Of a stretch of DNA of 64,000 nucleotides, positions 22,331 through 49,161 are shown piece by piece. The position numbers and the translations under genes were made by a program. Numbering within the stretch: the first letter of the stretch is position 1; each line of letters starts with the position of its first letter. The notes beneath the pieces are model-generated. The model was not told the DNA's origin. It saw only the letters and a program-made list of their open reading frames with translations, and did not search any database. Origin of the DNA: Naegleria gruberi (Eukaryota); the NCBI GenBank assembly GCA_000004985.1, contig GG738897.1; one strand, 5' to 3'.

Positions 22331-24351
22331 AAAGTGGAGTTCCAGCATAGGATTGACCTGTCATTTCTTGATACTTTTTGGCTAATCCAAAATCTGCCAA
22401 TACAATGTCAATATTGTCGCTTGTCATTTTCTTAATAAAAATATTTGTTTGCTTAATATCTCTGTGAATAATGTGCATTTCTTCATGTACATATTTCAAT
22501 GCATTCAACATTTGTTTCAATATTTGCTTGACAATCTTTTCACTGCAATTTTCTTGTTTCAATTTTGTTAAATCTCCCAATTCAAAATAATCCATGTCAA
22601 TAATCAATAAATTGTCATTTGTAATGAAATAATCATTAATTTTGATAATATTGGAATGGTTGATATGATTCAATTGAGATGCTTCTTTCATAATTGTATT
22701 CAAATCTGTCAATGTTTCAAATTTAACAAGTTTGATTGCTTTCAATTTGTTTTTCTTTAAATCTGTCACTTTGTAAACACTTCCAAATGCTCCTTGTCCA
22801 ATTCTTGTAATGTTTGAATATCTGGAGAATGGATTTATCATATCTGAGCCAACAGAAGATCCAGCAGATGAGGAAATAATCATTGAACTAGACGAAAGGA
22901 AAGTTGTTTCGGATAATTCAACATTTCCTGTGTCCAATTTAGCAATTTCAAAGTCCTTCTTTTTCTTTTTTGAGAAACACACGACTATTACAATAATTAA
23001 TATCACAACTATTAGTAAAATCAATAAAACCCCAACAATCGGTATCACAATAGCTACTATCAAAACTGTAGAATCAATTATTGACTGACTTTTGAGTTCA
23101 CAAAATTGACCTTCAAATCCAATCTTACATTGACAAACATCAATATCAGAACATTGTCCATTTCCATTACAAACATTTTCACTTGATGCCAATGTTCCAT
23201 TACAACTCAATTTGGAATCACATGTACTATTCCAAGAATTGTAAGTGTAGTTTCTTCCACAATATGGAATAATCTTTCGAATATAAGCTCTAGCATCAAT
23301 GAAAAAGATTTCACCCGTACTTTCATCGTAATCCACTTGTCTTGCAAACGTTGAAAAGATTGAATAAGTTCCAAATCCATCTCCATTGAATTTTGGGGAT
23401 GCAACTCTTGATCCAGCAATATCCAGCAATAAACCGCTCCGTTTCTGATACATTCGAACAAGAGAAGTTCCACTACCATCCAAAATAATTATATCTCCAT
23501 TCTTTTTCACATAGAAAGCAGAGGGATTATCGATCGATGATTGGAGGGCTGGTAGTTTATCACCTGAATAGCCCTGAATTGAATTTCCAACCAAAGTTCT
23601 TAAATAATAGGTGCCTTCAGATAGTTTTTCAATTCTTCTAATGGTAGCTTGTGTACTTAAATATATGTAACCACTATCATAGAAAATATTTGATATTACA
23701 CCTGGAAATGTCACATTACTCATGATTCCATCATCAGAAATGAGACCATTGTTTGAAAATGTAATATCTATTGACATTGTTTTAGTTGTTTGGCTGTATC
23801 TGTAAATTGCTGAATCCAAGGCGATTAGCAAATCACCAGTCGTATCCTCAACTGTCAATCCATTAATTAAATTAAATTGTGGACATGGAGAATCAACTGC
23901 ATTAATTCCAGTCACGAATGATCCACACACTGTTGATCCAATAACAGTTTCATAATTCATAGTGTCTGGATCGATTCGAATAAATCTACATGTATCCTTA
24001 ATATAGATTTTTCTATCAAATTTTGAGAACACTCCTTGAGCCTTTGCGGTGCCGAGTTGTGCATTGAAAGTAAAATAGGGTGATTTAACTGAAGCAAGTG
24101 GAGTTGTTAACAGTGAGCTACTTAAGGTGGTAGACTTGCCAGTAGTTTCATCAAATTTCTTCAAAGTTCTCATATCCATATAGTAGCTCACTTTCTTTGA
24201 TGCATCTCTCATTAACATTAACGGAGTTAAAGTTCTTGAAGCTGGACTTAGTCCTGCAATTGTGGAAACTCTTCCATTCGAAATTTCACTCAAATGATAT
24301 TGGTTTGTCACAAGAATTCTGGAATCTTGTTTGACAGCTCTTGGTAAATAT
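22331..24351 (-). CDS. receptor-like Ser/Thr kinase gene copy 1, exon 3 (NHL-like repeats, EGF-like Cys module, TM helix, kinase N-lobe and catalytic loop)
   Basis: EGF-like module: CNGNGQCSDIDVCQCKIGFEGQFCE. TM segment: VLIVAIVIPIVGVLLILLIVVILIIVIVV. Kinase motifs: GQGAFGSVYKV, HRDIKQTNIFI, DFGLAKK. An upstream 66-nt GTAAGT..AG intron (24352-24417) joins it to exon 2. Confidence 0.7.
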
Positions 24352-24417
24352 CTACAGTTCCATCATTAAGGCAGGAATTATTCGAATTTTCCCGAATATT
24401 AAAAGAATTATACTTAC

Positions 24418-25509
24418 AGAGCTGAGCTTTCGACTGGAATATTCTCACCATTGAATCCATAAACATAGACGATTGTGTTTGAAACATTAAGATGATCCAA
24501 TCCTCCAATTTTCTTCAATGTAAAACTTTCTAATTGAAAATCATAAAGTTGACCCATATTAAAAAAAAACAAATTTCTATCATTTTTTTGAAATCCATTA
24601 AATGTCAAAGATGTTGGCATTGGCGTGCTGAAAACTAACATTGATCCATTCTTAAAGTCAACATACTCATACAGAGTATTCAATGAACCTGAATATAAAA
24701 ATAAGGAATTAGAATCAGGATATCTGATATTTGGAATAGCAACAATTTGATCAAGATATCCATTTGGAATTGGAATTATTAATTGGTATAAAACTGTAGA
24801 TTTTTGTAAAATACTGATTAGATACTCAGAAGTTCTTAAATAAATTGTAGAATTGTCGAAAGAATCACCAAGTACATCAATCGCACTTGAATAAATTGGA
24901 GATTTGATTATTAAAGTCAAGTTTTGAGTTTCCACATTGAAATTGTAAAGTGATGTATCTAAATTAGTGAAAATCAAAACATCACCATTTCCAATATGGA
25001 TTGAATTGGCGACTAGCATGTAAAAACGCTGTGGAATGTTGGCCGTGTATTTGATTAATCTTTCACAACCCAATAAAGTGGTCATTTTTCCATTTGAAAC
25101 CTTTCGTAAATAATATGCTCTGTCAATAAAGTACAAGTCATTCTTATAGTAGAATGGGAATAAAACACTTCCTGTTGAATACATTTGGAGAGGTGAAATG
25201 TTTTCACCATTTGGATGATTAATTATTCCACCAGATAATGTGGAAACCATCTTGGTTTGTAAATCAATCTTTCGAATACAACTATTCGATTTATCTGCCA
25301 CTATTATCGCATTCTGAGTGATAATTAAAGAAGATGGTTCATAAAACTTGGTATTTAAAGAATCGAATAATTGATTATCACCATCGTATCCTTCTGAACC
25401 TCCAATAAGGATTTTAGTTTCATCTGAATTCAACAATTTCATTTGTATGAAATTATTACTTTGAGATGAAGTGTAAATTTCACCTCCATTCGAAACATAG
25501 ATACCATAT
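24418..25509 (-). CDS. receptor-like Ser/Thr kinase gene copy 1, exon 2 (NHL-like beta-propeller repeats)
   Basis: Continuous ORF 24414..25442 extended upstream to the AG acceptor. A 43-nt intron (25510-25552) with a GTAAGTG donor separates it from exon 1. Confidence 0.65.
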
Positions 25510-25552
25510 CTTTCGTATAATTATTAAACAAATCATTCAATTATTCACTTAC

Positions 25553-26376
25553 AAATTAGATTGAGCCACTCCTCCATCCACAATTCTATACATTCCATTT
25601 CCATCAATTGACTTGACTCTTTCTGCATCTGTAAAATAGACAATATCCTTATTTCCATTAGAAACAACGAATATATTCTTTGGAGATTGTAATTTCAAAA
25701 GCTTGGCATCTACACCATCATAATCACCATTTAAATAACCACCTCCTCCAATAATGGAAGTTTGTTTTGTGGAAATTTCGTATTTCTTGATTAGATTATT
25801 ATCTGTATCTGAAATGTAGGCAAATCCATTGGAAGAAACATAAACACCTCTTGGATTATTAAACGCATGTGCTATAGATGATGTTGTTCTTGTTCTATTC
25901 GAAACTATTCTAATCTTATTATTGAGTGAATCAGCAATAAACAAATCACCATTCAATGGATTCACAGATATAGCTGTCGGTGTATTCAATAATGTACCCA
26001 CAGCCTTCAATCCATCTCCATTGAATCCAGAAGTCACATATCCTGCATAAACTTCTGCATATTTATACATGTCAAAAATCCTAAAAACTACATGTCTATC
26101 AGCATCTGCAACAAAGACATCTCCATTCAAACCAGCACTCAAACCAGTAGGAGACAACATGTAGGCATATTTAGCCTCCACAATATCAAAATTATTGTTG
26201 AAACCTTCAAGTGTCTGTGTATAATAATTGACAGGTGTTGAAGATAGCGATTCCACAACCACCACCACCCCTGTAGACAACAACGCCATGAATACAAGCG
26301 CAAGGTATAAACATTGAATCCTCCTTGTTGTGCATAACATATTCTGACATCCATTGCTCAACCCACTTGTTACCAT
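25553..26376 (-). CDS. receptor-like Ser/Thr kinase gene copy 1, exon 1 (ATG, signal peptide, NHL-like repeats)
   Basis: ATG at 26376. The signal-peptide-like segment is MLCTTRRIQCLYLALVFMALLSTGVVVVV. NHL-type repeats follow (GDVFVADADRHVVFRIFD, GDLFIADSLNNKIRIV, GFAYISDTDNNLIKKY). The four spliced exons total ~1409 aa. Confidence 0.65.
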
Positions 26377-26674
26377 TTTTTTTCAGTGTTTGTTGAAATC
26401 CGCCAGAAATATTCGTTCACTGTCCAGTGAGAAATTTGTGGATTGGTGTAACACAACAAGAACACATTTCCAGCCAAGAAACGTAGAAAAATTTATTGCC
26501 TTGTTTAGAAAAAAAGTTCCACCTATGGCGCAAATTGATTCGTTCCTATGAAATTGGTTTAGCTATGGGGGAAAATGGTTTGCCTGTTGTTTGCCTTCTT
26601 GGTGTGTCTTCAAGCTATTCCTTTTTGCTTAAATTTTTATCAAAACCGGGCACGATAATGCAAAAAGGTGAATA

Positions 26675-26759
26675 CCCAATGCCAGGAATTGAACCTGGAT
26701 CACGTGAATACTGGATTTTACTCCAAGGAGACACTTGTCTTTCATTAGACGACACTGGG
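26675..26759 (-). tRNA. degenerate tRNA-like element (perfect acceptor and T-arm, but no G18G19 and no resolvable anticodon arm)
   Basis: Reverse complement: CCCAGTGTCGTCTAATGAAAGACAAGTGTCTCCTTGGAGTAAAATCCAGTATTCACGTGATCCAGGTTCAATTCCTGGCATTGGG. The acceptor is 7 bp (CCCAGTG/CATTGGG), the T-arm is CCAGG-TTCAATT-CCTGG, and the D-loop AATGAA lacks GG. It is 85 nt long. It could be an intron-containing tRNA precursor, or a tRNA-derived pseudogene or element. Confidence 0.35.
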
Positions 26760-26904: not shown

Positions 26905-26975
26905 TGCATTAGCCGGGAGTCGAACCCGGGTCACCAGCTTGGAAGGCTGGTATGATACCGTTACACTACTAATGC
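26905..26975 (-). tRNA. tRNA-Gly(UCC)
   Basis: Reverse complement: GCATTAGTAGTGTAACGGTATCATACCAGCCTTCCAAGCTGGTGACCCGGGTTCGACTCCCGGCTAATGCA. It forms a clean cloverleaf with acceptor GCATTAG/CTAATGC, anticodon stem ACCAGC/GCTGGT, loop CTTCCAA (anticodon TCC), and T-loop TTCGACT. Confidence 0.85.
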
Positions 26976-34952: not shown

Positions 34953-37900
34953 ATGTTTTTAAAACAATGGCTCAATAATAAGAGGAGCAACTCGATGAGT
35001 ACATCATCGTCATCGGGATCTATTAGTAATATGGTGAATACCAACAATAATCAGACAACAAATCCGAATAACAGTTACTCATCAGGGCTGGATAATTTGG
35101 GATTTTTAGATCAGCAAACATCACCCAATTCGCCTCCATCCTCCTCCTCATCACAATTTACCACATCCTCCCAATCACCAACTTCCAATAATCAAAACAA
35201 AGGAGTTTCAGGAGTTGTTGGTGATCAATCTCCTCTCCTTTTCAATCCTCCGAATAATAATAGCACAATTAATAATGAAAAATCAACAATTATGAACACG
35301 TCCACTTACTATACCTACACTGTCCAATCAGAAGAGGGTCTCCCTTCCATGGCCCAACATCACCATTTAGATGATGTTTCATCATCGGATGAGAATTTTC
35401 AATCACCACGAATGGTTCCTCTTCATGTCAATACTACACCTTCTTCATCAAACAATCATCATCAACACTCTGCATCGAGAATGATGCAACCGAATAGAGA
35501 CTCACCACTGATTCATCCCCACCATCATGCCATTCGTGTCTTTCCCTATGATTTACGAAAATTCAATAATAATCAACAACAACAACACATTTCTCATCAT
35601 CAATATTCACAATTATCAACAACACCAAATCAACAACAACATGGCAGTGAAGAATTAGCAGTATCAGTCTCTCCAATTCCTTCCAACCTGATGATGAATA
35701 TACCAGAGATTGGATTAAGTCCAATCACTTCAGGACCCAACAAACTTCTCAATTCTCCACATTCACCAATTGATGATGATCATAATAATGGTGGTGGAAT
35801 TTCACCAAAGAGTGATGAAGAAGTTTCTGTCTCTCTCTTCTCAGGGGATATTTCCAAGGCAGTTCATGATGAGTATTATCCATCACCACAAAAGCTTTCG
35901 GCCTCTCGGTTGTTACCTTCTGAACCACCATCACCAACTGCAACGACCACTAGGCTGGGTGATTCATTCAATAGTCAAATGCATTCACCATCTGTACGTT
36001 CGACAGCTTCAAATGTTTCCACTTCGAGAAGGAGAGCCAACAGTAACAGTTCAAACATTTCATCAACAATGTCCTTCCAGAATCCACAACAAAATGCTCC
36101 ATTTATTGTCTATTCTTTGAAGAATCAATCATTGGGATTTATGAATACTGCCATTTCACATCATTGTTCGAATAGAAATGCCAATCATCACACCCATAAT
36201 TTGTGTGAGGAGTGTACAAATTGTAATATTGCAAGAAATCATACTAGTCCATTTTCTGAAGTGTCAGTCATTAATATGATTGATCCAAATTCATCTCTTG
36301 GTATTGGAGAAGTGAATAATATTAATAAGGTTATATTATTGTACGATAGAAATGTAAATTTAGATACAAGTTATGCTTGTTTGACTCCATACTTTTTCAA
36401 TTATTGGAATTATGCTAATTTTTGTAATAGAAATGGAGAGGAGGTTGGAATTCCGAGAATACCTCCACATCAATACTTTTCCCTGAATGAGGAATTTATG
36501 TTTTATAGATGCAGACCTTTGAAAGTTGCTCCTAATAATATGGTTAGCTCTCCAATGCTGACATGCTATGAGGATGGTAGAATTTCAGTGTGGGATGCTA
36601 CCAATTCTAAACGAGTGGCCAACCTGAACGGTCACAGATTGACAATTACTTGTGCAGTACCAATTTTTGCTCAGGGAACTCTCATTTCTCAATCATCAGA
36701 AGATTCCAATCTCTATTTCCAATATACACCATTTGCTCAATTCTTATTGACTGGATCTGGAGATAAGTCCATTAAATTGTGGGATATTTCAGCAATTTGG
36801 AGCACATCAGGTCAGGCACCTACATTCAATCTGAATCCAGTGAGAACCATGAACATTCACGAATCGAGTGTTAGATGTATTGAACTACTCAATGATGGAT
36901 CCCCAAGATTTTGCTCTGCCTCCAATGATGGTAAAATTTGTTTGTGGAATTGGTTCACTGGAGAGCTCCTCCAAGTGATCAATAGAAGAGAGGATGGATG
37001 CATTTCCAATATGTTTATCATGAATTCCATGTTTTACAATGATATGTCATTCATTGAAAGGACGAACAATACCATCGTTTCAACATGCTCCAACAAGCCA
37101 GATTTATTCATCTATGATTTTGAAAAGATTGAAGATGTTATTGAGGAATCACCAACTATAACCGATGATTCGTCTAGCAATGACTTTTTCTACAAGTTAA
37201 TTGATGAAGAATTGGTACCTTCAGCAACAACAGAGCCAAGTAGTAGTGCATCCGTAGTAACACAACCACCTATTACATCCAACAAACCAAAAAATATCAT
37301 TTCCAGTCTAAAGATTCTCAATATTTTCTCAATGCCTTCCACTTCATCAAATGCTGATAACATTTCACAAAAATCAGATAATTCCTCTCATTCATCCATG
37401 ACTCAATCAATGAATCAATCGATGAACCAATCGCCAAACCAATCTAATCCAACCCTTCCTGCTAAACAGTCAGAGTTTGATTACATTATTAGCACTGTAA
37501 ATAATTTTGGAGAATTAACCTTTTGGAAAACAGCTCAGATCGATTCTGAAGCTAAATGGAACAAGTTGTGCTCTTGCAAGAAGATTCGTGAAATTTTGGA
37601 ATCCAAATACTCATCAAACGAACTCACCTATCAAGCATGTATTCAGTTGGTGGTGAATAATCACTTCTTGTTGGTTTCTCTCGCAAACCACTTGTTCATT
37701 TTCGATATTGCTGACATTCTCATGCACACAGAAGGTAATCAGGAATGTAAATTCTTATTGGAACAGGCAGAGGCTCACTCATCCACCATCACTACCATGT
37801 GTACTCTTCATTATGGTCATATTATTGCCACTGGTGCAGAGGATGGCACGATTCGATTATGGGACACTGGCAAACTGTTGATATCTAATAATCCATACGT

Positions 37901-38624
37901 ACCAACTCCAAATCCAGAAACTGCCTCAACAACAGCCAGCAGTATTTTACATCCTATTGAAAGTATTTTTATTGGAACAAGTAAGAATGTACAAACAGCA
38001 TTTTTGAGAAATATTGCCACATTACAAATGCACAGCCAAGCAATTGTCTCTCTACAATCACTCAATGAATATGCATTTATTAGTGTGGCAAAGGGTGAAC
38101 CATTTGCCTTAATGTGGAAAGATTCGAGAATGGAGAAGAAGCTCAGAGGATATTACGCATTCCATTATGGATTAGGAAATACTGACATGCTCAGTAGTGG
38201 ATCAGCCGGAGGATACAATGTGCCAAACATGCTCTCACTCATGCTTGGTGAGAATAATAGTGTTGCTACAGCACTCAATGTGACACCATTTGCCTATCTC
38301 AGTATGGTTAATAATAGACAAAGAAGTAATAGTGGTATGAGAAAGGTTCAATCTGTGATTGGATTCAAGAATCCAGGATATGGTAAAGCACTATCACCGA
38401 AGAGTTCCAGTACTGAGGATTTGACAGTCAATACGCAAAGAGAAAAGGCAGCTATGAGGGCATTTACTACTGATGATGAAAGATTGAACAAGGATGATGA
38501 AGCTTCTGAGGCTTTAGAATCTCAACAACAGGATGATTACTGTGAAACGTGTACAAGTGAAGTTTCAACTCCTGTACAACATTCACGTACAGACACGGTA
38601 GATAGTGAAAAACTTTTAGAATAA
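34953..38624 (+). CDS. large WD40-repeat protein with a low-complexity N-terminal half
   Basis: 1223 aa with an ATG start. WD40 signatures are present (LLTGSGDKSIKLWDI, CSASNDGKICLWNW, ATGAEDGTIRLWDTGKL). Confidence 0.7.
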   Translation: MFLKQWLNNKRSNSMSTSSSSGSISNMVNTNNNQTTNPNNSYSSGLDNLGFLDQQTSPNSPPSSSSSQFTTSSQSPTSNNQNKGVSGVVGDQSPLLFNPPNNNSTINNEKSTIMNTSTYYTYTVQSEEGLPSMAQHHHLDDVSSSDENFQSPRMVPLHVNTTPSSSNNHHQHSASRMMQPNRDSPLIHPHHHAIRVFPYDLRKFNNNQQQQHISHHQYSQLSTTPNQQQHGSEELAVSVSPIPSNLMMNIPEIGLSPITSGPNKLLNSPHSPIDDDHNNGGGISPKSDEEVSVSLFSGDISKAVHDEYYPSPQKLSASRLLPSEPPSPTATTTRLGDSFNSQMHSPSVRSTASNVSTSRRRANSNSSNISSTMSFQNPQQNAPFIVYSLKNQSLGFMNTAISHHCSNRNANHHTHNLCEECTNCNIARNHTSPFSEVSVINMIDPNSSLGIGEVNNINKVILLYDRNVNLDTSYACLTPYFFNYWNYANFCNRNGEEVGIPRIPPHQYFSLNEEFMFYRCRPLKVAPNNMVSSPMLTCYEDGRISVWDATNSKRVANLNGHRLTITCAVPIFAQGTLISQSSEDSNLYFQYTPFAQFLLTGSGDKSIKLWDISAIWSTSGQAPTFNLNPVRTMNIHESSVRCIELLNDGSPRFCSASNDGKICLWNWFTGELLQVINRREDGCISNMFIMNSMFYNDMSFIERTNNTIVSTCSNKPDLFIYDFEKIEDVIEESPTITDDSSSNDFFYKLIDEELVPSATTEPSSSASVVTQPPITSNKPKNIISSLKILNIFSMPSTSSNADNISQKSDNSSHSSMTQSMNQSMNQSPNQSNPTLPAKQSEFDYIISTVNNFGELTFWKTAQIDSEAKWNKLCSCKKIREILESKYSSNELTYQACIQLVVNNHFLLVSLANHLFIFDIADILMHTEGNQECKFLLEQAEAHSSTITTMCTLHYGHIIATGAEDGTIRLWDTGKLLISNNPYVPTPNPETASTTASSILHPIESIFIGTSKNVQTAFLRNIATLQMHSQAIVSLQSLNEYAFISVAKGEPFALMWKDSRMEKKLRGYYAFHYGLGNTDMLSSGSAGGYNVPNMLSLMLGENNSVATALNVTPFAYLSMVNNRQRSNSGMRKVQSVIGFKNPGYGKALSPKSSSTEDLTVNTQREKAAMRAFTTDDERLNKDDEASEALESQQQDDYCETCTSEVSTPVQHSRTDTVDSEKLLE

Positions 38625-38695
38625 ACCAATTCATAATGGAATATTTTGGCCTTTGAAAACATGATTTTAGTTGAGAAAAGAGCAAAAATTCAGAT

Positions 38696-38769
38696 ACCCT
38701 CCACCAGGAGTTGAACCTGGATCTTGCGAATGAGCCAGTCGCATATTCTAACCATTGAACCACAGAGGG
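38696..38769 (-). tRNA. tRNA-like gene (Glu/Gln-type scaffold) with an atypical 9-nt anticodon loop CTGGCTCAT; paralog of 45505..45578
   Basis: Reverse complement: CCCTCTGTGGTTCAATGGTTAGAATATGCGACTGGCTCATTCGCAAGATCCAGGTTCAACTCCTGGTGGAGGGT. The acceptor is 7 bp, the D-arm is GTTC/AATGGTTA/GAAT with GG, the anticodon stem is TGCGA/TCGCA enclosing 9 nt, and the T-arm is CCAGG-TTCAACT-CCTGG. The 3' trailer ATCTGAATTTTTG resembles the trailer of its paralog. Confidence 0.55.
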
Positions 38770-39136
38770 AATTAATGAAACAACCAAAAATTCTCAAAAT
38801 CACAATCTGGAATTGTACAACAAAACTATTTACTGATGCATTTATTTTGAAACACAAAACATCGAAATTAGAGGAAGCTTTTCAAAAGATCAAAAATCGA
38901 TGCCAAGTTATGTCTACTGTTAAAGAATTGGCAAACAATGAAAATTTTATCAATGATACCAAGTCCATAATTAACTCCTTATTTTGCAGTAGGTCTTTAA
39001 CTGTTTTTTTGCTTCCTTATTTTGTCAGTTCTTTATTGGTGAATATTTGTACAAGTTGCCTTTTGAAAAAAAAATAGGAAAAAAGTAAAGGATTTACTGA
39101 AAACAAACTAAAAATAATAAATAAACTATTTTCTGA

Positions 39137-39416
39137 TTATTTGAAGTAAGGCATTTGGAGAATCTGCCTTGCACTTGGACGAGTTTCCTGATTCCTGTCC
39201 AACATTTTAATCACAATTTCCATTAATTCATTCGAATATTGTTGTTCAGCTTCCATTTGCTTTGTGAGAATTGACACAGCATTTGCTGATTGATTTCCCA
39301 TCAACAAGTTTCCAATAGAAATTGTTTCATCCTTTGTCATGATCTGATAAATTGAAACTCCCAATGAGAAAATATCGGTATTGAAAGAATAACAACTTCC
39401 CAATGCAATTTCAGGA
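39137..39416 (-). CDS. receptor-like Ser/Thr kinase gene copy 2, exon 5 (kinase C-terminus, stop included)
   Basis: The exon encodes ..SPEIALGSCYSFNTDIFSLGVSIYQIM... A 50-nt GTAAGC..AG intron (39417-39466) joins it to exon 4. Confidence 0.7.
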
Positions 39417-39466
39417 CTATTTCAATATCATGGTCAATTAAGTTGTGAAATTTAACATTTGCTTAC

Positions 39467-41554
39467 CTCATAAAAAGTGGAGTTCCAGCATAGGAATGAC
39501 CTTTCATTTCTTGATGCTTTTTAGCTAAGCCAAAATCAGCCAAAACAACTTCAATATCATTTCCAGAAAGATTTCGAATAAAAATATTTGAAGGTTTGAT
39601 GTCTCTGTGAATGATTGATAATTCTGAATGGACATAGTCAAGAGCACTCAGTACTTGTTTCATTATCTTTCGAATAATATCTTCAGAACATGTTTCTTTC
39701 TTTGTAAATCTTGTCAAATCGCCATTTTCAAAATAATCCATATCCATACAAAGTAAATTATCTTTTGTAATGAAATAATCATTGATTATCAAAATATTTG
39801 GATGTCTAATATTACTAAATTGTGATGCCTCTTTCATAATCGTATTCAAATCTGTAAATGATTCAAATTTCACAAACTTGACAGCTTTGATTTTGTTTCC
39901 ACATTTGGTATCTGTCACTTTGAATACACTTCCAAATGCACCTTGTCCAATTCTGACCATATTAATATATCTTGAAAGGACATCTTCATTATCTGACACA
40001 TTGGATCCCATAGACGATGAAATAATTACAGAACTGGATGGGAAGTCTGACATTTCAACAATTGTGGCATTTGCTATTTCATTTCTCTTCACTGCCTTCT
40101 TCTTCTTCATAGATAGTAGAATGATAACCACCACAACAATTATCACTATTATTAAGCCAATTCCAACAATTGGAATCACAATTGCAACCACCAAAACAGT
40201 TGTTGATTGATCGTTGGCTAAATTATCGAGTGAAGATCTTTCACAAAATTGACCATCGAAACCAGTAATACAGTTACAAATATCCAATCCAACACAACTT
40301 CCCTTTCCATTACAACTTTTTGAATCTGAAGAACTAGTTCCATTACAAGTGATTGGTTGACATTTGTCACCATAGAAACCACTCAAGCAATCGCATGTAT
40401 TATTGAAAGAATTGAATTGTGCTCCTCCTTCACAAACAGGATATAGCTTTCTAATTAGTGAAGTTACACCATTGGTTGACACTGTTTCAAGAAAAAGAGT
40501 TTCGTCCGATTTCTCATTTACATCAATAGTATAACCAAAACCAATAAAACTTGTTTCCACTCCCTTCAGGTCTCCATTGAAATAGGTACTCTGCTCTCTT
40601 GGTTTTCCTGCAATGGTCACTAACAATCCAGTTTTTTTCACATACTTTCTAATAATATTATTACCAGAATCCAATATAATTATATCACCATTCTCTTTCA
40701 CATAAAATGACTTAATTTGAGACAATTTAGACGAAACAGCAGGTAGATTATCACCACTATATCCATCAGTCCCAGTTCCAACAATACTCTTCAAATAGAA
40801 CGAACCATTCTGAAGTCGTTCCAAAACTCGAATGGTGTTTGCTGTGCAAAAGTAATGCAGGTCATCACTAATGGAATGAGAGGAACCAATGACACCAATT
40901 CGTTTGTCATTTTCTACAATGATTCCATCTTCAGATTCGAAAGGTGAATTGAGTGGATTCCAAAAGAATACACGAATCATACCTGAACTCTTTTCAATCT
41001 TTCCAAAAAAATCTGGATAACAAATGTAAATATCGCCATTCTTGGGATTTACAGAAAGACCTTTAGTACTTTGCTTTCCCAATGGAGAATTCAAAGCTGG
41101 AATGTCAGGAATCACTGTTCCACATTCCTTTCCTGCCACTTTCTGATATTTCAATGTTTTTGGATCAATTTGAATAATTCTGCAATAATCTGCAACATAA
41201 ATCATATTATCATAGAGAGAGAATACCATTTTAACATCAACTCTTGGAAAAAGTGCAAACATAAAGGAATCTAAAAGTACTAAAGAAAAGGAAAGGAAAG
41301 GTTTGACAGCTGGCAATAGAGAGGTAATTTCACCAGTTTTCTCATCATACTTCTTCAATACATTCTTATCTATTATATAGATTAGATTTTGATTTGGATC
41401 TCTGCAAAAGGAATTCATGTCCATACCAAGTAAGTTTGAGCTAGGATTGCTGCCAACTATAGTTTTGGCAATTCCATCAACTATTGTGTAAATGTAGGAT
41501 GATACTGTCGCAATGTAAATGACTCCATTATGTGCATAAATTGAATTAATCGAC
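39467..41554 (-). CDS. receptor-like Ser/Thr kinase gene copy 2, exon 4 (NHL-like repeats, EGF-like module, TM, kinase domain)
   Basis: EGF-like module: CNGKGSCVGLDICNCITGFDGQFCE. TM segment: VLVVAIVIPIVGIGLIIVIIVVVVIIL. Kinase motifs: GQGAFGSVFKV, HRDIKPSNIFI, DFGLAKK. The ORF is open from the acceptor at 41554. A 40-nt intron (41555-41594) lies upstream. Confidence 0.7.
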
Positions 41555-41594
41555 CTTTTAAGGTTTCGAATAAAAAATTTTCAAAGAAACTTAC

Positions 41595-42650
41595 ATTGCT
41601 GATTGAGTGGCATTAACATTCTCACCACTATATCCATCAAAATCAACATAAGTTCCAGAATATGTACCTCCATCAATTCCACCAACCTTTCTTAAACTAA
41701 GATCATCCAAATTTGCTTCATAAATTCTGTAACCATTCGCAACATAAATCTTTCCATATATGGAATCATAGGCAACACGTGAAATTGAAACTGGAAATTC
41801 AATCCAGTCCGAAGATTGATTTTTCCATTCCACTTTTATAAGTATTCCAGATGAAATATAATATAAAGTATTGTTTAGGATGGAAAACTCATTTACACTG
41901 TACTCAATCTTACTTGAATCTTGTAAAGTTTCGTTTTGATATTTGTAAATGCCATCTGAACTCACAAATCCAATGTACATTGTGCCATTATCAAAGGAAT
42001 TTCCAAAACCAGTAATAGAGCTAATTGGATTACTGTAATTAATTTGGAAATATCTCATCCTTAATGTATCCAAATTAAGAACGTGTAAATCGTGGTATCC
42101 AGAAATAACCAAATCTCCATTTGGAAAGCAAAATAAACTTAAAATTGATTTGAAAGTTCTCGTTGGTGAAGTTTCTGTTTTCAATTTTGAACTCACTCCA
42201 AAGACAGTCTTGATTAGTCCATCTATTTTCGAAACCTTTCTAATAATCAAATGTTGTTCCACAAAATAAAGTTCATCATTATATATGAATGGTTTGTACA
42301 ATACATTGACTTGTGAAATCTCAAATCTTGGCAAGTCCTCTCCATAGGGATGATTAATGAATCCACCACTGAATGTTGACACAATCTTATTGGAAACATC
42401 AATCTTTCGAATACAATTATTGGATTTGTCCACAAGATAGACCATTGTATTTTTCACAATCAAAGAACCAGGTTCATAAAATCGAACATTCGAATAAGAA
42501 TTAACTAAATCATCTCCTTCATATCCAAACGAATCTTTTTCACCAATTATTGTTTTGGTTGAACTATCAATTAAAGAATTCATTTGTAGAAAATGTGAAT
42601 TGGACGACGAGGTCCAAATTTCATTATTGGACGAAACAAATATTCCATTT
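41595..42650 (-). CDS. receptor-like Ser/Thr kinase gene copy 2, exon 3 (NHL-like repeats)
   Basis: ORF 41591..42583 extended upstream to the ..tattag acceptor. It is homologous to exon 2 of copy 1 (YGIYVSNGGEIYTSSQSNNFIQMKLLNSD vs NGIFVSSNNEIWTSSSNSHFLQMNSLIDS). Confidence 0.65.
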
Positions 42651-42673
42651 CTAATAATTATGGGATAGTCAAT

Positions 42674-44412
42674 GTGGTAGACTTAAACAGAAAGTTCATT
42701 TTCTGAATCAGCAAAGGACCTTCTTATCCAGCAAAGGCCCCTCTCATCCAGCAAGTCACCAACCAATAAAACACCGAATAATGCTTTTTCAGCAAATAAC
42801 TCCTTCTTAATTTCATAAATTACTGATTTAGCAAAGCTTTCTTAATTATCCAAAGATTTGTTCCATTGCAGCAAATTCAATAAAGAAGAATATAAAGTGC
42901 TGATTTATTCTAAACCTGATTATTACGGATTAACAACTTTTATATATTTTGATGTATACATATTATAGTTGCTGTTACTATTAACTTAAGCATTGTGGCT
43001 TCAAGTTGGCAAACTGTAACAACAATCTAAGGACGTGAAAAATATTCAAAAGTGTATTCTTCATAACAAAACATAATCTAAATTAGTATCAACATCTTTA
43101 TTTGAGTTGTTTTATTTGCCATGTGATCCGACTATAAAAGTGACTGTATATGAAGAATCCACCTTAATTTGTAATTTTTTGTTCTGCAACAGCAAATCAA
43201 CGGAAAATATTAATGAAAAGACATCATGTACTAATTTACTATGTTATTTGATGAAATCAAGTGGAGAATGCATAAAACAGATTTTGATACAAGAAAACAC
43301 AATGATGATAATAAAAATATAATTTTATTTAATTATTGAAATAATTCAAGGTGGAAAATCAGCAAGATTTCCGACCTTGAAATTTACCTTGTTGGAAAAT
43401 TCACCATTAGTGAATTTTATTGATGGTTCGATGATGATGACCATTAAGATATTTACCATAATGATCGGAAATGAACTTGTTGATGATATTGATGATAAAA
43501 GATATGATGAAGAGAAAATTCCACAACTCTATGAATACTAAGTGGAAAAATTCCAACTCTCTTGATGGTGATATTAGACATCCCTACTAATGATACTATG
43601 TTGTTGAAATTCTATCATCATGATGAAAATATATGGTGAATGATGAATACACCACCAACAAGGTAAAAACTCAAAATATCCAAAAACTATTATTCGGAGT
43701 GTTGTTGATGATGTATTTGAATAGTACTATTCGAAGAAAGTTTGGAAGATGATGAAGTACATGTTGAGTTATTGCATATGTATAATTTCAAAATATACAT
43801 GAAGCAAACTTGATGAAATGAGAAGATGAATTCCTGCTATTGATACTGGTGATACTATAGAGTATTGCCAACAATCCCTAATTGAAGAAATTCCTAATGA
43901 ACAAGTAAATCTGCTGATGAGGATGATATTATGTGAAATTTGAAATTTCACCCAATAACAAGTACTAACAGAGACTCCACTTGCTTAAATTACTATTAAT
44001 ACAATAATAAATATACTGTGATGATGAACTCCGGCTTAATGATGATGTTTGGAAGTGTGAAATTTCCGATGATAGAAAACCACTATAATTCATTCCGAGA
44101 AGAAGCACCACCATAAAATATTACTATTATTACTATTGGTGAGATGTAGCCCAGCCACTATAATTGAAGTATTCCAAAATGATGATGAGTTGATTGAAAT
44201 AAATACCAGTGATGATGTAGAGGTATTTTTTTTACTTTCTTCAATTGCTAAATGGGAACAATTTCGTGGCTTATTCAGTAAAATTTTGCCAATTTACTGT
44301 TTATTTGCTGATTAAGTATGCGCGGATTCAGTAAAAATGATAAGCACATGGCTTGCTGAAACAGACCATCCTTTGCTGTTTTTTTTGAAAAATTTGCTGA
44401 AAAAGTACTACG
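42674..44412. mobile_element. ~1.74-kb non-autonomous DNA-transposon-like insertion inside intron 2 of kinase copy 2, flanked by a 9-bp direct repeat ATAGTCAAT (plus strand) and carrying subterminal inverted CAGCAAAGG repeats
   Basis: The homologous intron in copy 1 is 43 nt; here it is ~1.8 kb (42651-44450). ATAGTCAAT occurs at ~42665-42673 and ~44413-44421. The left end has CAGCAAAGGACC / CAGCAAAGGCCC / CAGCAAGTC at 20-bp spacing plus further CAGCAAA copies. The right end has the reverse-complement CCTTTGCTG / TTGCTGA copies. There is no long ORF. The interior holds a TGATGA-rich degenerate repeat (~43380-44230) and repeated CACTATAATT..ATTCC units. Confidence 0.45.
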
Positions 44413-44450
44413 CATAGTCAATTAGTTTGAGTTTCTGAAAAAACACTTAC

Positions 44451-44709
44451 AACTTGGTTTCAAGTTCTGAAATTGCTATCCTTCGATATTTACCATTCTT
44501 ATCAATGGATTTGACTCTTTCGTCATCTGTGAAATAAACAGTGTCATCTTTCCCATTCGAAACTACATGAATATTCTTTGGAGATCGAAGAATTATTGAA
44601 TTGGCCTCAACATTATCGTACGATCCATCTAGATATCCATTTCCACCAGCGATTGTTGTCAAAATCTTGCTGCCAATGTCATATTTCTTTATCACGTTAT
44701 TTCCAGAAT
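44451..44709 (-). CDS. receptor-like Ser/Thr kinase gene copy 2, exon 2
   Basis: The exon lies between a 42-nt GTAAGT..AG intron (44710-44751) and a GTAAGTG donor at 44450. It encodes DSGNNVIKKYDIGSKILTTIAGGNGYLDGSYDNV..., which are NHL-like repeats. Confidence 0.65.
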
Positions 44710-44751
44710 CTTTTGACATGTTTCAAAGAAATTTAGAAATATTTAACTTAC

Positions 44752-45310
44752 CTGCAATGTAGAGTATGTTATTATTGGAAACATACACTCCCAATGGTTT
44801 GTTGAATGCAAAAGGTAGAGAAGAAACCAAATTCGTCTCAGCAGAAACTAGACGAATCTTATCATTATTCGTGTCAGCAATCCACAAATCACCATTAATC
44901 GCCACACTCAACGAAGAAGGTGAATTAAACAAGGTTTGTTTCACATCATATCCATCCTGATTAAAACCAAGTCCTAACCCTCCAAAAACAATCATACTTT
45001 CGTTTGGAAAAATCTTGAAAATTAATCCTCTCACACAATCAGACACGAAAATTTCATCATTATTTCCAGAGCAGATGCCACATGGAGCTTTTAGAAAGGC
45101 ATGTTTGGCAGTGAATGTTCTGTCAACATCTTGACCATTGCCTTTGTATCCTGTTAGTGTTTGTAGTTGGTAAGTTTCGGCTGCTTTAGTTTGAAAGAAT
45201 TTGTCTGAACTGCTTTGAAAGAGAAGAAACAGTAAACAGAGCAGTATCATCAATGTGTTTAGTTGCATTTTTTTGAAAAGTTTCTCCTTGTTGACAATCC
45301 TGACACACAT
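44752..45310 (-). CDS. receptor-like Ser/Thr kinase gene copy 2, exon 1 (signal peptide, NHL-like repeats)
   Basis: The ORF track starts at TTG (45361). In-frame ATGs lie at 45310 and 45268; the latter begins the signal-peptide-like MQLNTLMILLCLLFLLF. The exon ends with ..YIAG|GTAAGT. Confidence 0.6.
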
Positions 45311-45504
45311 CAAACTCCTCTGATTGAGAGCTAGTTGATGACTTTTAGCATAATCTTGCAATAATAGAAATTCCCCGATTCCAACTAGAATAGTTATAAT
45401 GGAATCTTCAGGAGTTGGAGTTGTGGTTCCAATTTGTGGGTATAAAAATAACTTGGTTTACTACTCAACTGCGTGACAAAAGTTTTTTTTTCAAATTAAT
45501 ACTT

Positions 45505-45578
45505 CCCTTTGTAGTTCAATGGTTAGAACGTGCGACTGATCCACTCGCAAGATTCAGGTTCAACTCCTGGCAGAGGGT
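45505..45578 (+). tRNA. tRNA-like gene with an atypical 9-nt anticodon loop CTGATCCAC; paralog of 38696..38769 in inverted orientation
   Basis: CCCTTTGTAGTTCAATGGTTAGAACGTGCGACTGATCCACTCGCAAGATTCAGGTTCAACTCCTGGCAGAGGGT. It has the same scaffold as the 38696 element, differing mainly in the loop. The 3' trailer is TCCTGAATTTTGG. Confidence 0.55.
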
Positions 45579-45763
45579 TCCTGAATTTTGGTCTTCCTAA
45601 GATGCTAGAGACATTAATAAACACCTTTTATTTTGAAGGGTTTTCTATCAGCAATTCCAATATTTGTTCTTCTCCAATGATTCGAATATAAATGTTATTA
45701 GAAACTTGAGCAACCCTCTGACTTGTTCAAGTTCTTGCCAATTACTATGAGTGCCCATTCACC

Positions 45764-46069
45764 ATGTTCAAGCCAACTTCCATACTATCCATTATGTTAA
45801 ATAGACCACCTGCCACCTGTCATCCAAATCAAAAACAAAAAAAAATGGTCAGCATTTACAGATTCTTTATGAATTGTCTTTTACTCTTTATTGGTGTCGT
45901 CTTTCCACCATTTGGTTTCCCACTTGTCATTGGTGAACATGTTCATGATGTCAATACTAGATATAAATATTGGGGATTGAATATTCTCTTGACTATTTGT
46001 TTGTGGCTTCCTGGAGTTATTCACTTCTTGTACTATTGGATTAAATCAGGTCATTTCTGTGCTGATTAA
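45764..46069 (+). CDS. Pmp3/UPF0057 (YqaE, RCI2/Lti6) family small membrane proteolipid
   Basis: The C-terminal 60 aa (CLLLFIGVVFPPFGFPLVIGEHVHDVNTRYKYWGLNILLTICLWLPGVIHFLYYWI) matches the two-TM Pmp3 consensus (..LPP.gV.......iN.lLTil.w.PG.ih..y.i). The true start may be the internal MVSIYRFF. Confidence 0.7.
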   Translation: MFKPTSILSIMLNRPPATCHPNQKQKKMVSIYRFFMNCLLLFIGVVFPPFGFPLVIGEHVHDVNTRYKYWGLNILLTICLWLPGVIHFLYYWIKSGHFCAD

Positions 46070-46299
46070 ATTGTTTAGAATAACGTTTCGAATAAATATT
46101 TCTGTTTGAATTGATGATGAAAAATTGCAAGTATGTGATGACAAGTTAAACGGCTACATATGTTTTGGGTGTTGATTCTAAAAAAGGTCATTTAGTTGGC
46201 GCCATTCTGTGAAATTTTCCTTCACATTCACTTTGCCTTTGTTTCCAATACTGTTTTTCATTCGATAGAAACAATTTACCATTTATTTAATCAAATTTA

Positions 46300-48810
46300 C
46301 TACTTTTTAATGGTCAATGGATCATAATCTGGATTCAATGAGCTTCCACAAGTAGCCACTTTTCCAAAATAGGAAAATTCAGAACTAGCCATTCCAGGAA
46401 TCATCAAATCATCACTTTTTACAACTTGAATCGTATCAACATGGAAAGTTCTCAATATTGTTGATGGTTCTGTCAAACTAAATCTCAACTTTTTGAGTGA
46501 AAATGAACTTGTTGTAAACTCAGAAATTGGAATTCTTACTCGTGCTGTTGTATTGTCAATCTTGTAATTTAAAACGTGCTCCTTCTTTACAATTACTTGT
46601 TTACCGAAAGCAGTTACTGAAATATTGAGTGGTCCATAATTATCTGAAACTCTAACAAAGAATTCGAAATGAGAATAGGCAGCACCGCTCAAACCATTAG
46701 TTCTTTCAAGATAGACATCACCACTTCCCATAATCATCTTGATTGCATTACCACATAATCCTCCTTCTCCATTAACTTCATAGGAAGCATCTCCATTTCC
46801 AGTAACAGTCGAGAATGAATTCAAATTGTCTGTGAAGAAGGCATTTCCAAAAGTTCCGTAATTGACACATGAATCTGTGGCATTGGCTATTGGAGGAGGT
46901 AAGGCACATGTCGAAGTAGTCGAATTACTGCAATATAATTGAGCTCTCAAATGTCCAGTTGGATTTTGAGTGGTTGACAATTTGACAAACATTTGACCTT
47001 TCAATAGAGCTACTTGTTCTTGATAAGATAAATCAAGGAGGAAACGACTGACACCATAAGGGGATATTGGATTATCCAATCCTGGATGGATAATTCTCTC
47101 TTGAGTACCGACAGCTCCAATTCCAACTGAAATTTCAGTGGCGATTAAATTCAAATTGTGGAAAACTGTGAAATCTAAAAGTTTTGCTTTGAAATCCCAA
47201 AATGCAAAGACTTTTCCTGAGCCATTTGAGCCAATGAGGGATGAGTTGACTGCTTTTTGTTGGCAGACTTCTAAATTTCCAACAAATCGATCTTCCTTCA
47301 TTAAGGTATTGTAAACTAATTTGGAAGAAGTTGGATTACCAAATTTAGATGGAGCACAGTTATTGTTTGGACAAGTTGCAACAATTCTAATCAAACCAAC
47401 ACTATGATAATCAGAAAATGGGTAAACATTCTCAAAATCATCTCTTGGCACTCTATTTTGTAACTTGACATATAAATGCTCAGTTGTCTGATTGTAATAT
47501 GCCAATTCATTTGGTGAAACCATGACCTCAGCCAATGAACTTGCCCAAGTCACAGGATACGTATTCGAACTTCCACTTTCTGACCAAGTTATCTTGAAAT
47601 CTGTCTTATTTGGATACTGAATTGCCAACACAATCCAATCATAGTTGACTGCATTTTTCAAGCTGACGGACAAATCTCTCGGAGTTGGATGATCATTTGG
47701 CCATCTCAGTCCATAAAATCCTCTATTAAGCAAGTTATATTGTATTACCCATGTGTTATCATTACCTCCTGGGCTTCCATTGGATGGTCCTTGAATATTT
47801 CTCAATTGGTCAACCACGTACATTCTTGGTGTGATGATATTTGCGTTTTTCAATTCAGGTTGTGCAACTCCTTTGGATGAGGTAGTATTGTATGTTGTAA
47901 ACTCGTTATTTCCGACCCTGAGTTGAACGAACATTTCACCAGTTGCGGGACAACCATAAGCACTCCAATCACTATTCGAAACACAACCAGAAAAGGCGTT
48001 CAATGGATCTTGACCAACAATCCAACCTCCACTTGGAAAACCACTAATACTTCCATCCAAATCTGCCCAAATTCCCATTCTCTGGTTATCATATGGAGTA
48101 TTATTCAAGGCATAGAACTTGTTAGAATTAATAAAGGTCAACCCAAAGAGTTTGTTAACTGCTGATTCCAATTGTTTACGAGAACGATGAGAAACTGCAC
48201 CAGAGGCCTTATATGCATCTGGAATAAAGTTAATAAATGTGCAATTGTAAAGTAATTGAGGACCGTCGTCTTCATAAACTTCGTAACCACGAATGATCAA
48301 CTCATCACTTGCATAGAGTTGAGGACGAGTTCTACCACCAACGTCAACCTTTGATCTGAAACTTGAATCGCCTACATTAGAGGTCTCACCAATCATGATA
48401 GAGTTTCTTGTAATAGTTGGTCCCTTTGGTGCAGTAATTTGTACGTTATTGTCAAATGCCAAAAAGTTTTCCAAATAAAGAACTCCTCCCTTAACCCAAG
48501 CTCCATAATCTCTATTCTTGTAAGCAGTAAAACGGAAGAATGAAGCTGACCCATTCAATGGGTAGTATCCCTCAGTTTCTAATGTACCATCAGAAAGCAA
48601 CATTTCATCAATCCACAATCCAGTAATTGAGCTGTGAGCAACGTTATCTTCGAATGGAGCCATTGCTGTTCTTCTTGGATTGAAATCTTGACCTGCATAG
48701 ATGGTAGCACTCATTCCAACAGGGAAAACTGGGAAAGAGAGCCAGAATCCGAACTTACCACCCACAGCAACGTTTCCAATAAAGGTATTGTTTGGCTTTT
48801 TTATGGTTGA
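46300..48810 (-). CDS. large secreted parallel beta-helix (PbH1) repeat protein, exon 3 (CEMIP/TMEM2-like)
   Basis: 837 codons are open from the acceptor at 48810. The exon is joined to exon 2 by an unusually short 31-nt GTAAGT..TTTTAG intron (48811-48841), phase 0. Confidence 0.6.
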   Translation of the reverse strand, partial: STIKKPNNTFIGNVAVGGKFGFWLSFPVFPVGMSATIYAGQDFNPRRTAMAPFEDNVAHSSITGLWIDEMLLSDGTLETEGYYPLNGSASFFRFTAYKNRDYGAWVKGGVLYLENFLAFDNNVQITAPKGPTITRNSIMIGETSNVGDSSFRSKVDVGGRTRPQLYASDELIIRGYEVYEDDGPQLLYNCTFINFIPDAYKASGAVSHRSRKQLESAVNKLFGLTFINSNKFYALNNTPYDNQRMGIWADLDGSISGFPSGGWIVGQDPLNAFSGCVSNSDWSAYGCPATGEMFVQLRVGNNEFTTYNTTSSKGVAQPELKNANIITPRMYVVDQLRNIQGPSNGSPGGNDNTWVIQYNLLNRGFYGLRWPNDHPTPRDLSVSLKNAVNYDWIVLAIQYPNKTDFKITWSESGSSNTYPVTWASSLAEVMVSPNELAYYNQTTEHLYVKLQNRVPRDDFENVYPFSDYHSVGLIRIVATCPNNNCAPSKFGNPTSSKLVYNTLMKEDRFVGNLEVCQQKAVNSSLIGSNGSGKVFAFWDFKAKLLDFTVFHNLNLIATEISVGIGAVGTQERIIHPGLDNPISPYGVSRFLLDLSYQEQVALLKGQMFVKLSTTQNPTGHLRAQLYCSNSTTSTCALPPPIANATDSCVNYGTFGNAFFTDNLNSFSTVTGNGDASYEVNGEGGLCGNAIKMIMGSGDVYLERTNGLSGAAYSHFEFFVRVSDNYGPLNISVTAFGKQVIVKKEHVLNYKIDNTTARVRIPISEFTTSSFSLKKLRFSLTEPSTILRTFHVDTIQVVKSDDLMIPGMASSEFSYFGKVATCGSSLNPDYDPLTIKK

Positions 48811-48841
48811 CTAAAAAATTGTAAAGAACTTTCAAACTTAC

Positions 48842-49161
48842 ATTTGTAATCCAATAGACACTAGCATCACAATCCGATGGAATAATTTGTAATTGATCAG
48901 CATCTCCAACCGGATTCACTTTTACGCCTAAATTATTTCTAAATTCATTTCCAAATTCGGAACCATCTTCCAAATAAAAAGCATGACCTGTAATATTGAA
49001 ACAGATATTGTTTTTCACGAGAATGTTTCTAGAATCATGAATGACGATGCATCTTTGATAACTATTCCAAATGGCATTGTTTGCAATCATGAATTGAGTG
49101 GAAATTTGTTTGCTTGTGTCTTTTAACAAGTGAAGATGTAATCCGTATCTTCCCATTAAAC
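48842..49161 (-). CDS. secreted PbH1-repeat protein, exon 2
   Basis: The exon encodes ..IANNAIWNSYQRCIVIHDSRNILVKNNICFNITGHAFYLEDGSEFGNEFRNNLGVKVN.., a right-handed beta-helix repeat signature. A 62-nt intron (49162-49223) lies upstream. Confidence 0.6.

Follow-up and report, generated by a model that had tools for sequence, protein, structure and literature searches.

Intact cloverleaf, drifting anticodon: a probable lineage of non-decoding tRNA-derived genes in Naegleria gruberi

Introduction

A transfer RNA (tRNA) gene whose anticodon loop fits no ordinary register raises a simple question: does it decode in an unusual way, is its product repaired after transcription, is it dying, or does its RNA no longer decode at all? 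Two 74-nt tRNA-like genes of Naegleria gruberi pose this question. They lie on contig GG738897.1 (assembly GCA_000004985.1), in a stretch of 64,000 nt that was analysed as a whole (hereafter the window): copy A at 38696–38769 on the minus strand and copy B at 45505–45578 on the plus strand, in inverted orientation around the second of two receptor-kinase genes. Both close nine nucleotides in the anticodon loop instead of seven. A first-pass annotation of this DNA had offered three identities for them, namely expanded-loop tRNAs, tRNAs with a 2-nt insertion or atypical intron, and tRNA-derived regulatory RNAs, and had added that the pair might mark the boundaries of a duplication. We argue here that the elements are probably non-decoding tRNA-derived genes, competent for transcription by RNA polymerase III (Pol III), whose body was kept at least in the past while the anticodon drifts.

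Results and discussion

Two complete cloverleaves with no legal anticodon loop

ARAGORN and Rfam model RF00005 placed both elements at exactly the coordinates and on the strands first proposed, with Rfam scores of 51.2 bits (E 4.6e-8) for copy A and 55.4 bits (E 3.3e-9) for copy B, both well above the gathering score of 29. RNAfold folded copy A as a tRNA, and a family covariance model, R1, built from copies A and B and a second-strain orthologue (B′, described below) and run on the window with filters off, scored copy A at 98 bits and copy B at 104 bits. Divided at its arms, copy A reads CCCUCUG-UG-GUUC-AAUGGUUA-GAAU-A-UGCGA-CUGGCUCAU-UCGCA-AGAU-CCAGG-UUCAACU-CCUGG-UGGAGGG-U and copy B reads CCCUUUG-UA-GUUC-AAUGGUUA-GAAC-G-UGCGA-CUGAUCCAC-UCGCA-AGAU-UCAGG-UUCAACU-CCUGG-CAGAGGG-U. 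The acceptor stem pairs over 7 bp from C1-G72 (CCCUCUG/UGGAGGG in copy A, CCCUUUG/CAGAGGG in copy B), the length given at first pass, in a register that starts one base 3′ of the T apparently counted there. The remainder of the tRNA scaffold is present as described, with a D arm of GUUC-AAUGGUUA-GAAY that includes G18G19, a 4-nt variable region AGAU, a T arm of YCAGG-UUCAACU-CCUGG, a discriminator U and trailers ending in T runs. Copies A, B and B′ all possess U8, A14, G18G19, T54-Psi55-C56 and A58, and their acceptor, D, anticodon and T stems of 7, 4, 5 and 5 bp consist of standard pairs throughout (21/21 in each). For A and B, the cloverleaf is both the minimum-energy and the centroid structure.

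The anticodon stem UGCGA/UCGCA closes nine nucleotides, CUGGCUCAU in copy A and CUGAUCCAC in copy B, and in each of these loops Rfam finds 2 nt inserted, in agreement with the enlarged loop within a 5-bp stem reported at first pass. A 7-nt loop would require loop positions 1 and 9 to pair, where the bases are C·U and C·C, and would bring a G to position 33; no alternative stem that would yield one could be obtained, and no register of seven with U33 and a purine at 37 exists in any member of the family (loops of 9, 9, 10 and 23 nt). ARAGORN calls A and B Ser(gct) and Asp(atc) by forcing a register on the loop, and both isotypes are artefacts. In RNAfold structures of the loops of A, B and B′, U33 pairs with A and G34 with C, leaving a tip of 3–4 nt, and all loop differences among the three sit in that tip or in the C·Y mismatch; the anticodon arm may be a capped stem instead of an open loop, although no covariation is there to prove it.

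The loop changes length between near-identical strains

The G8-domain protein encoded next to copy B has a 99%-identical relative (P0106) on a metagenome contig in ENA (L005), whose DNA is 97.8–97.9% identical to window positions 44414–49136. Alignment of this contig to the window identified B′, the orthologue of copy B, at positions 3671–3745 on its minus strand. Three differences in 74 nt separate the two. An extra U in B′ lengthens the anticodon loop from 9 to 10 nt (CUGAUCCAC to CUGAUUCCAC), U49 is replaced by C, turning a G·U pair into G-C, and C59 is replaced by G at a variable position of the T loop; both substitutions fall where a tRNA fold tolerates change. ARAGORN assigned no isotype to B′ ('tRNA-???, anticodon attc'). 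The 10-nt loop in a near-identical strain indicates that loop length is not fixed.

Over the 90 nt between −5 and +11, copies A and B share 84% identity; they are inverted, the 3′ end of each facing outward from the kinase gene, and beyond these limits their flanks cannot be aligned. Their 11 differences comprise five in stems, two at unpaired positions 9 and 26, and four in the 9-nt loop, so that 4/9 loop positions differ vs 7/65 in the body, which is 89% identical. All five stem differences preserve pairing through G·U; in simulation, five random stem substitutions kept all 21 pairs with P between 0.004 and 0.085, depending on the share of transitions. The 5-nt loop cores, GGCUC in A and GAUCC in B, differ at three of five positions. 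Both 9-nt loops also have a derived frame in common, CUG...CAY, which indicates that the enlarged loop was already present in the common ancestor of A and B, and therefore that the pair-preserving changes postdate the loss of the canonical loop.

A third member extends the pattern

The first-pass annotation had recognised two family members in the window. R1 detected a third, copy C, an 86-nt element at 26674–26759 on the minus strand (46.2 bits, E 1.8e-11), which had been missed by ARAGORN and by the whole-window Rfam scan with default filters at the gathering threshold; under lax filters the Rfam tRNA model scores it at 37.8 bits, above the gathering score. Copy C has C1-G72, the T arm GAUCCAGGUUCAAUUCCUGG, the discriminator U and a T5 run at +8 in common with A and B. 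Its anticodon-loop site holds 23 nt, CUCCUUGGAGUAAAAUCCAGUAU, which can be written as CU-CCUUGGAGUAAAAUCCAGU-AU and folds as a 5-bp hairpin, and its overall fold reaches −25.8 kcal/mol (z −3.25). The anticodon stem, AGUGU/UCACG, retains three Watson-Crick pairs and has two terminal mismatches, and 19 of 21 cloverleaf pairs are standard.

Between U33 and A37, the insert measures 5 nt in copy A, 5 or 6 nt in copy B depending on the strain, and 19 nt in copy C. At least three independent length changes have occurred at this site, namely the expansion in the A/B ancestor, the extra U of B′ and the 16-nt excess of C, and random placement would put them there with P ~1e-3. A single length change lies outside the anticodon region, a 2-nt deletion in the D loop of copy C. 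Over the same four sequences, 97.6% of the 84 cloverleaf pair cells hold standard pairs, a level matched by 0/500 shuffles and compared with 30–50% in slid controls, and five pairs (4-69, 5-68, 12-23, 13-22 and 29-41) are changed on both sides between copy C and A/B. We take these copies for a small N. gruberi paralogue lineage in which a variable insert now stands in place of the anticodon triplet, between U33 and A37.

Could the enlarged loops decode, or be spliced?

Natural tRNAs for five-base codons would be a major finding if true, and the frame C32-U33-(N5)-A-Y, kept in the 9-nt loops within an intact tRNA body, invites the idea that the elements are functional adaptors with an expanded anticodon, reading four- or five-base codons or suppressing programmed frameshifts. 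Engineered five-base decoders, whose loops are also 9 nt, reportedly share this frame. Enlarged loops with C32-U33 and A37-Y38 also liken the family to the expanded-loop tRNAs SufB2, SufA6 and SufJ, yeast mitochondrial tRNA-Thr1 and the engineered decoders as a group. However, those tRNAs have a fixed loop and a defined isotype and codon, and the loops of natural frameshift suppressors and of yeast mitochondrial tRNA-Thr1 measure 8 nt, not 9–10 (PMC7803779, PMC3113583). In the N. gruberi family the loop is 9 nt in one strain, 10 nt in another that is ~98% identical and 23 nt in copy C, there is no common anticodon given the three differences among five core positions, and acceptor identity appears altered, with C1-G72 and U73 unlike the U1-A72 and G73 of the canonical tRNA-Glu of the same genome. 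The minimum-energy fold, moreover, pairs U33 with A and G34 with C inside the loop. A tRNA body that is kept while the anticodon drifts argues against quadruplet or quintuplet decoding, and the strain polymorphism and the 23-nt member make five-base adaptors very unlikely; we regard decoding of any such kind as close to excluded, and the first of the identities originally suggested is not supported.

Alternatively, the inserts (2 nt in A, 2–3 nt in B and B′, and 16 nt in C) could be removed after transcription to leave ordinary tRNAs. Excision directly after U33 gives CU-NNN-AY in all four sequences, with anticodons CUC, UCC, UCC and AGU, all of them normal in eukaryotes; since about 45 of the 64 triplets are 'normal' anticodons, this match carries no statistical weight. 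Much like an intron, the 16-nt insert of copy C forms pairs with the anticodon region. For 3-nt tRNA introns, the only precedent is the Guillardia theta nucleomorph, where they are spliced from non-canonical positions (PMC4090602); tRNA micro-introns there range from 3 to 24 nt, with excision shown by RT-PCR (Kawach 2005, as reviewed in PMC4090602). Like the family described here, these are very short insertions in otherwise functional-looking tRNA genes. In contrast to it, each nucleomorph gene is the sole copy for its anticodon, whereas in N. gruberi canonical genes for the candidate anticodons coexist in the window, several isotypes would be implied and no splicing motif is found. After removal at the canonical site, 37/38, position 37 is always a pyrimidine, U or C; no copy contains a bulge-helix-bulge motif, and the inserts are unrelated to one another. 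Splicing would also yield three amino acid identities from one scaffold, yet canonical tRNA-Gly(UCC) and tRNA-Glu genes with quite different bodies share the window. To our knowledge there is no 2-nt tRNA intron. We consider post-transcriptional removal very unlikely, and the 2-nt intron first suggested finds no support here.

Pol III signals and the search for a mobile element

Copies A and B possess an A box (TRGTTCAATGG) and a B box (GGTTCAACTCC) equal in quality to the boxes of the canonical tRNA-Glu, tRNA-Gly and tRNA-Ile genes of the window, while the A box of copy C lacks GG. In all four sequences (A, B, B′ and C), a run of four or five T begins at +8 after the discriminator; in the canonical genes it begins at +5 to +7. 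The 3′ trailer of copy A (aucugaauuuuug, 38683–38695, minus strand) contains a T5 run and that of copy B (uccugaauuuugg, 45579–45591, plus strand) a T4 run, both Pol III-type terminators, and the two trailers are homologous to +11. From these motifs, we predict that the elements are Pol III-competent, with a type 2 promoter layout.

Intact A and B boxes would equally serve a role at the level of DNA, either as parts of a mobile element with the kinase gene as its cargo (terminal inverted repeats or tRNA heads) or as insulators of the kind that tRNA genes (tDNAs) might provide around the kinase gene, with selection for nothing but TFIIIC and Pol III binding; tDNAs act as chromatin barriers in yeast and human. 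Two inverted copies do bracket a segment of 6.7 kb, and this segment is absent from the junction between WD40 and RCC1 genes in N. lovaniensis and N. fowleri. These species are, however, too diverged from N. gruberi for the synteny gap to prove an insertion. The inverted homology is limited to 90 nt (−5 to +11), reaching no further than the terminator, with no tRNA-unrelated body, tail or downstream sequence common to A and B; no target-site duplication surrounds copy B, copy C or the 6.9-kb unit; and neither kinase copy 1 nor the paralogue contigs L001 and L127 show a comparable bracket. Pair-preserving changes in the acceptor stem lie outside the A and B boxes, which points to constraint on RNA rather than on DNA. 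A role at the DNA level or as part of a mobile element is highly improbable on these grounds. The same observations speak against a tRNA-derived short interspersed element (SINE), an identity that the first-pass annotation had named as fatal to its own proposals: A/B boxes and dispersed copies are common to SINEs and to this family, but the family has no unrelated body, no tail and no consistent target-site duplications, and its cloverleaf is intact.

The only hint of a target-site duplication is a 9-nt AT-rich word, GAATTTTTG, that occurs on either side of copy A, at 38785–38793 (16–24 nt upstream) and, in the trailer, at 38683–38691 (minus-strand reading), and is not seen around B or C. Its rough chance expectation is about 0.05, and it is probably a coincidence in AT-rich DNA.

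Neutral decay or a maintained body

The most direct challenge to a non-decoding but maintained tRNA body is that the copies are plain neutral tRNA pseudogenes, with their intact stems owed to youth, chance or occasional gene conversion. The family resembles the pseudogenes and 'undetermined-anticodon' predictions of tRNAscan-SE in being tRNA-derived and lineage-specific, in its internal Pol III promoter, unreadable anticodon and lower score, and in residing in a tDNA-rich genome: 924 tDNAs are predicted in N. gruberi, 41 of them flagged as pseudogenes by tRNAscan (PMC2888827). Rfam scores are 51–55 bits for A and B and 38 for C, compared with 69 for the canonical tRNA-Gly, 67 for tRNA-Glu and 51 for tRNA-Ile; the secondary structure of A and B is perfect. 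Short insertions in single members of eukaryotic tRNA families are, moreover, generally marks of pseudogenes (PMC4090602). Set against this, the cloverleaf of pseudogenes and of tRNA-derived repeats usually comes unpaired (PMC8450103), whereas A, B and B′ keep all 21 pairs after 11–16% divergence and confine both their damage and their length changes to the anticodon region; all five of the A/B stem substitutions preserve pairing; and an 89%-identical body stands between flanks that cannot be aligned. The earlier contention that A and B are not randomly decayed pseudogenes thus holds up, and we judge neutral decay unlikely as an account of the family, while granting it appreciable weight.

Several observations nevertheless count against a maintained body and in part favour neutral decay. 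Copy C has lost G18G19 from its D loop and has two anticodon-stem mismatches, which looks like decay. Its compensatory changes relative to A/B could reflect different functional parent tRNAs, and the stem comparison between A and B becomes marginal if every change is a transition. Between strains, copy B has accumulated two substitutions and one indel in 74 nt, compared with three differences in 143 nt of left intergenic DNA, 11 in 915 nt of coding DNA, and 11 substitutions plus an indel of ~110 nt in the right flank; copy B thus changes at least as fast as neighbouring DNA and shows no sign of strong recent purifying selection. With only four sequences (A, B, B′ and C) to compare, the statistics are weak, and transcription and processing are both predicted from motifs.

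The reading that we favour, probably non-decoding genes with a formerly or still maintained body, can be set out as follows. The features needed by RNA polymerase III, RNase P and RNase Z (cloverleaf, A/B boxes and T-run terminator) are kept in A and B, and the copies would be transcribed by Pol III and then processed into tRNA-shaped RNAs. Lacking a 7-nt loop and a stable anticodon, and bearing C1-G72 and U73, these RNAs would be no ordinary ribosomal adaptors. The insert would close on itself, through U33-A, a G-C pair and a tip of 3–4 nt in A, B and B′ and through a 5-bp hairpin in C. The body could have been kept by selection on the RNA or on the tDNA body, or by gene conversion from canonical paralogues, and any role would hang on the tRNA body, not on decoding. 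The first-pass suggestion of a tRNA-derived regulatory RNA stays a live candidate in the broader form of a tRNA-derived RNA whose function lies outside decoding. A bolder version, in which the copies represent an N. gruberi-specific class of stable Pol III tRNA-shaped RNAs with a capped anticodon arm, a hypervariable tip ranging from 3–4 nt to a 5-bp hairpin and a body with C1-G72/U73 under selection, strikes us as rather doubtful.

Among known non-decoding RNAs, a close parallel is with mascRNA of MALAT1 and RNAs of its type, which likewise offer a tRNA-shaped body to RNase P and RNase Z, have a poorly conserved or non-functional anticodon arm and would owe any function to something other than decoding. 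mascRNA is cut from a Pol II transcript and has no Pol III promoter or terminator of its own; in this it differs from the N. gruberi family, whose members look like stand-alone Pol III genes.

Parent tRNA and distribution

The body was initially described as Glu/Gln-type. Of the N. gruberi tRNAs at hand, the closest is the canonical tRNA-Glu(UUC) gene of the window (62908–62979, minus strand; ARAGORN, Rfam), identical at 40–44 of 65 body positions and scoring 65.4 bits with R1, compared with 41 for the tRNA-Gly and 14 for the tRNA-Ile of the window. R1 also gives 60–69 bits, however, to metagenomic tRNA-Asn genes that are unrelated but have this D arm in common, and in a panel alignment with other tRNAs the Asn, Glu, Gln and Asp types fall within a few matches of one another, a comparison that serves as a lead only. 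The anticodon arm, GUGCGA-CUG...UCGCA-AGAU, may equal that of yeast tRNA-Asn; a text search for the yeast arm gave no hit. C1-G72 and U73 of the family differ from U1-A72 and G73 of the tRNA-Glu. As judged from these comparisons, the parent is a tRNA of the Asn/Glu/Gln/Asp type with a 4-nt variable region; the initial restriction to Glu/Gln was too specific.

With ARAGORN, Rfam and R1, neither the 96 kb of N. lovaniensis DNA nor the 13 kb of N. fowleri DNA that was scanned yielded a family member; both include the syntenic Peptidase-C1/WD40 loci, which were located through WD40 orthologues (L002 in N. lovaniensis, L003 and L004 in N. fowleri). Three members are thus known from the 64 kb of the window, whereas ~165 kb of further Naegleria DNA contained none. 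Because synteny is broken just past the WD40 gene, absence from the other species says little about age. No tRNA of any kind was found in 73 kb of N. lovaniensis DNA around G8-domain paralogues (L124–L126). Overall, the window holds six tRNA-like genes, compared with none in ~96 kb of N. lovaniensis (L002 and L124–L126), which suggests that the species differ greatly in tDNA load or that the window contains a local cluster.

Family-specific patterns gave no match in the JGI metagenomes or IMG/VR, and blastn against phage records gave no match. A looser pattern of D arm and T loop returned 118 metagenome loci, all of them unrelated tRNAs of many isotypes, mostly with 7-nt loops. In one of the 118, at 5745–5795 of SDBT01001705.1 (L067), the anticodon region (…CUAGUUUUUUAGUAAGCUAG…) is too long and the T arm aberrant; from its sequence, this appears to be a further tRNA-like gene whose anticodon loop has expanded, unrelated to the family. 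In the literature, we found nothing specific on tRNA oddities in Naegleria or on 9-nt loops in nuclear tRNAs.

Genomic context

The window has 32–38% G+C, long N/Q-rich open reading frames (ORFs) and few introns. Between copies A and B lies receptor-kinase copy 2 (39140–42583, minus strand), with NHL, EGF, transmembrane and kinase regions, which matches the N. gruberi predicted protein P0001 (1118 aa) at 100%; within it, the ORF at 39463–41424 on the minus strand is 100% identical to part of this predicted serine/threonine kinase. NHL-repeat ORFs follow upstream at 44447–45361 (minus strand), identified from the ORF list; they belong to the duplicated unit and are homologous to 25584–25687 of kinase copy 1. 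Copy A is located 371 nt past the stop codon of kinase copy 2 and copy B 144 nt past the start of the upstream NHL ORF, on the opposite strand. Kinase copy 1 with its upstream NHL ORF was mapped by homology to 21994–26376 on the minus strand, and the two kinase regions correspond over 22052–25687 and 39198–44585 at ~70% DNA identity. Upstream of copy 1 lie copy C, ~300 nt from its NHL ORF, and, at ~530 nt, the canonical tRNA-Gly(UCC) gene (26905–26975, minus strand; ARAGORN, Rfam), which precedes copy C by 145 nt in the same orientation; downstream of kinase copy 1 there is no family member.

The suggestion that the inverted pair marks the ends of the duplication is not sustained, since no such bracket surrounds kinase copy 1 and the region is rearranged. 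No family member occurs on the paralogue contigs L001 and L127, which indicates that the association of tRNA-like gene and kinase is not general. Most simply, the inverted A/B pair around kinase copy 2 consists of two dispersed paralogues in a tDNA-rich genome and is not a functional bracket.

The NHL/EGF/transmembrane/kinase receptors form a multi-member family, and copy 2 has ~1.9 kb extra between the NHL ORFs and the annotated start. Among the kinases in the second-strain sample, P0004 is a 97%-identical orthologue of copy 1, P0002 is a third paralogue, 68% identical to copy 2, and P0005 a more distant homologue, 65% identical to copy 1.

On its other side, copy A lies 72 nt past the stop codon of a convergent WD40 gene (34953–38624, plus strand), whose 1223-aa ORF is 100% identical to the N. 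gruberi protein P0103, and RNA made from copy A by Pol III would probably run antisense to the 3′ untranslated region of that gene. Exact-protein look-ups with the WD40 protein, P0001, P0103 and the last kinase exon turned up no second-strain orthologue of copy A. In both N. lovaniensis and N. fowleri, an RCC1-like gene comes immediately after the Peptidase-C1 and WD40 genes, with neither tRNA nor kinase present. Synteny is lost at the position of copy A, immediately past the stop codon of the WD40 gene (38624–38696 in the window; 13468–13604 in L002; 9727–9787 in L003). The orthologue of the gene that lies beyond RCC1 in the other species is found at 19930–20991 of the window, on the other side, which indicates that the region has been rearranged; a breakpoint of the rearrangement coincides with the tDNA-like copy A.

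Beside copy B, right after its terminator, the second strain has ~110 nt of extra DNA (L005 3540–3656 vs window 45592–45600), or the window a deletion. This indel is the largest difference across 4.9 kb of otherwise ~98%-identical DNA and may reflect instability beside a Pol III gene.

Conclusion

In conclusion, these loci should not be annotated as Ser, Asp or 'novel' tRNAs. Their detection holds a lesson for annotation, in that ARAGORN forced anticodons on two of the copies and the default Rfam filters missed the third. If the doubtful, bolder version of our reading were true, N. gruberi would possess a family of tRNA-like non-coding RNAs that act through the tRNA body; they could, for instance, serve enzymes that bind tRNA as decoys or substrates, or signal processing sites or boundaries beside genes. 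With the anticodon lost and the base pairs kept, the family offers a test case for the way in which tRNA genes die and for the possible co-option of some of them as tRNA-shaped non-coding RNAs or as Pol III landmarks.

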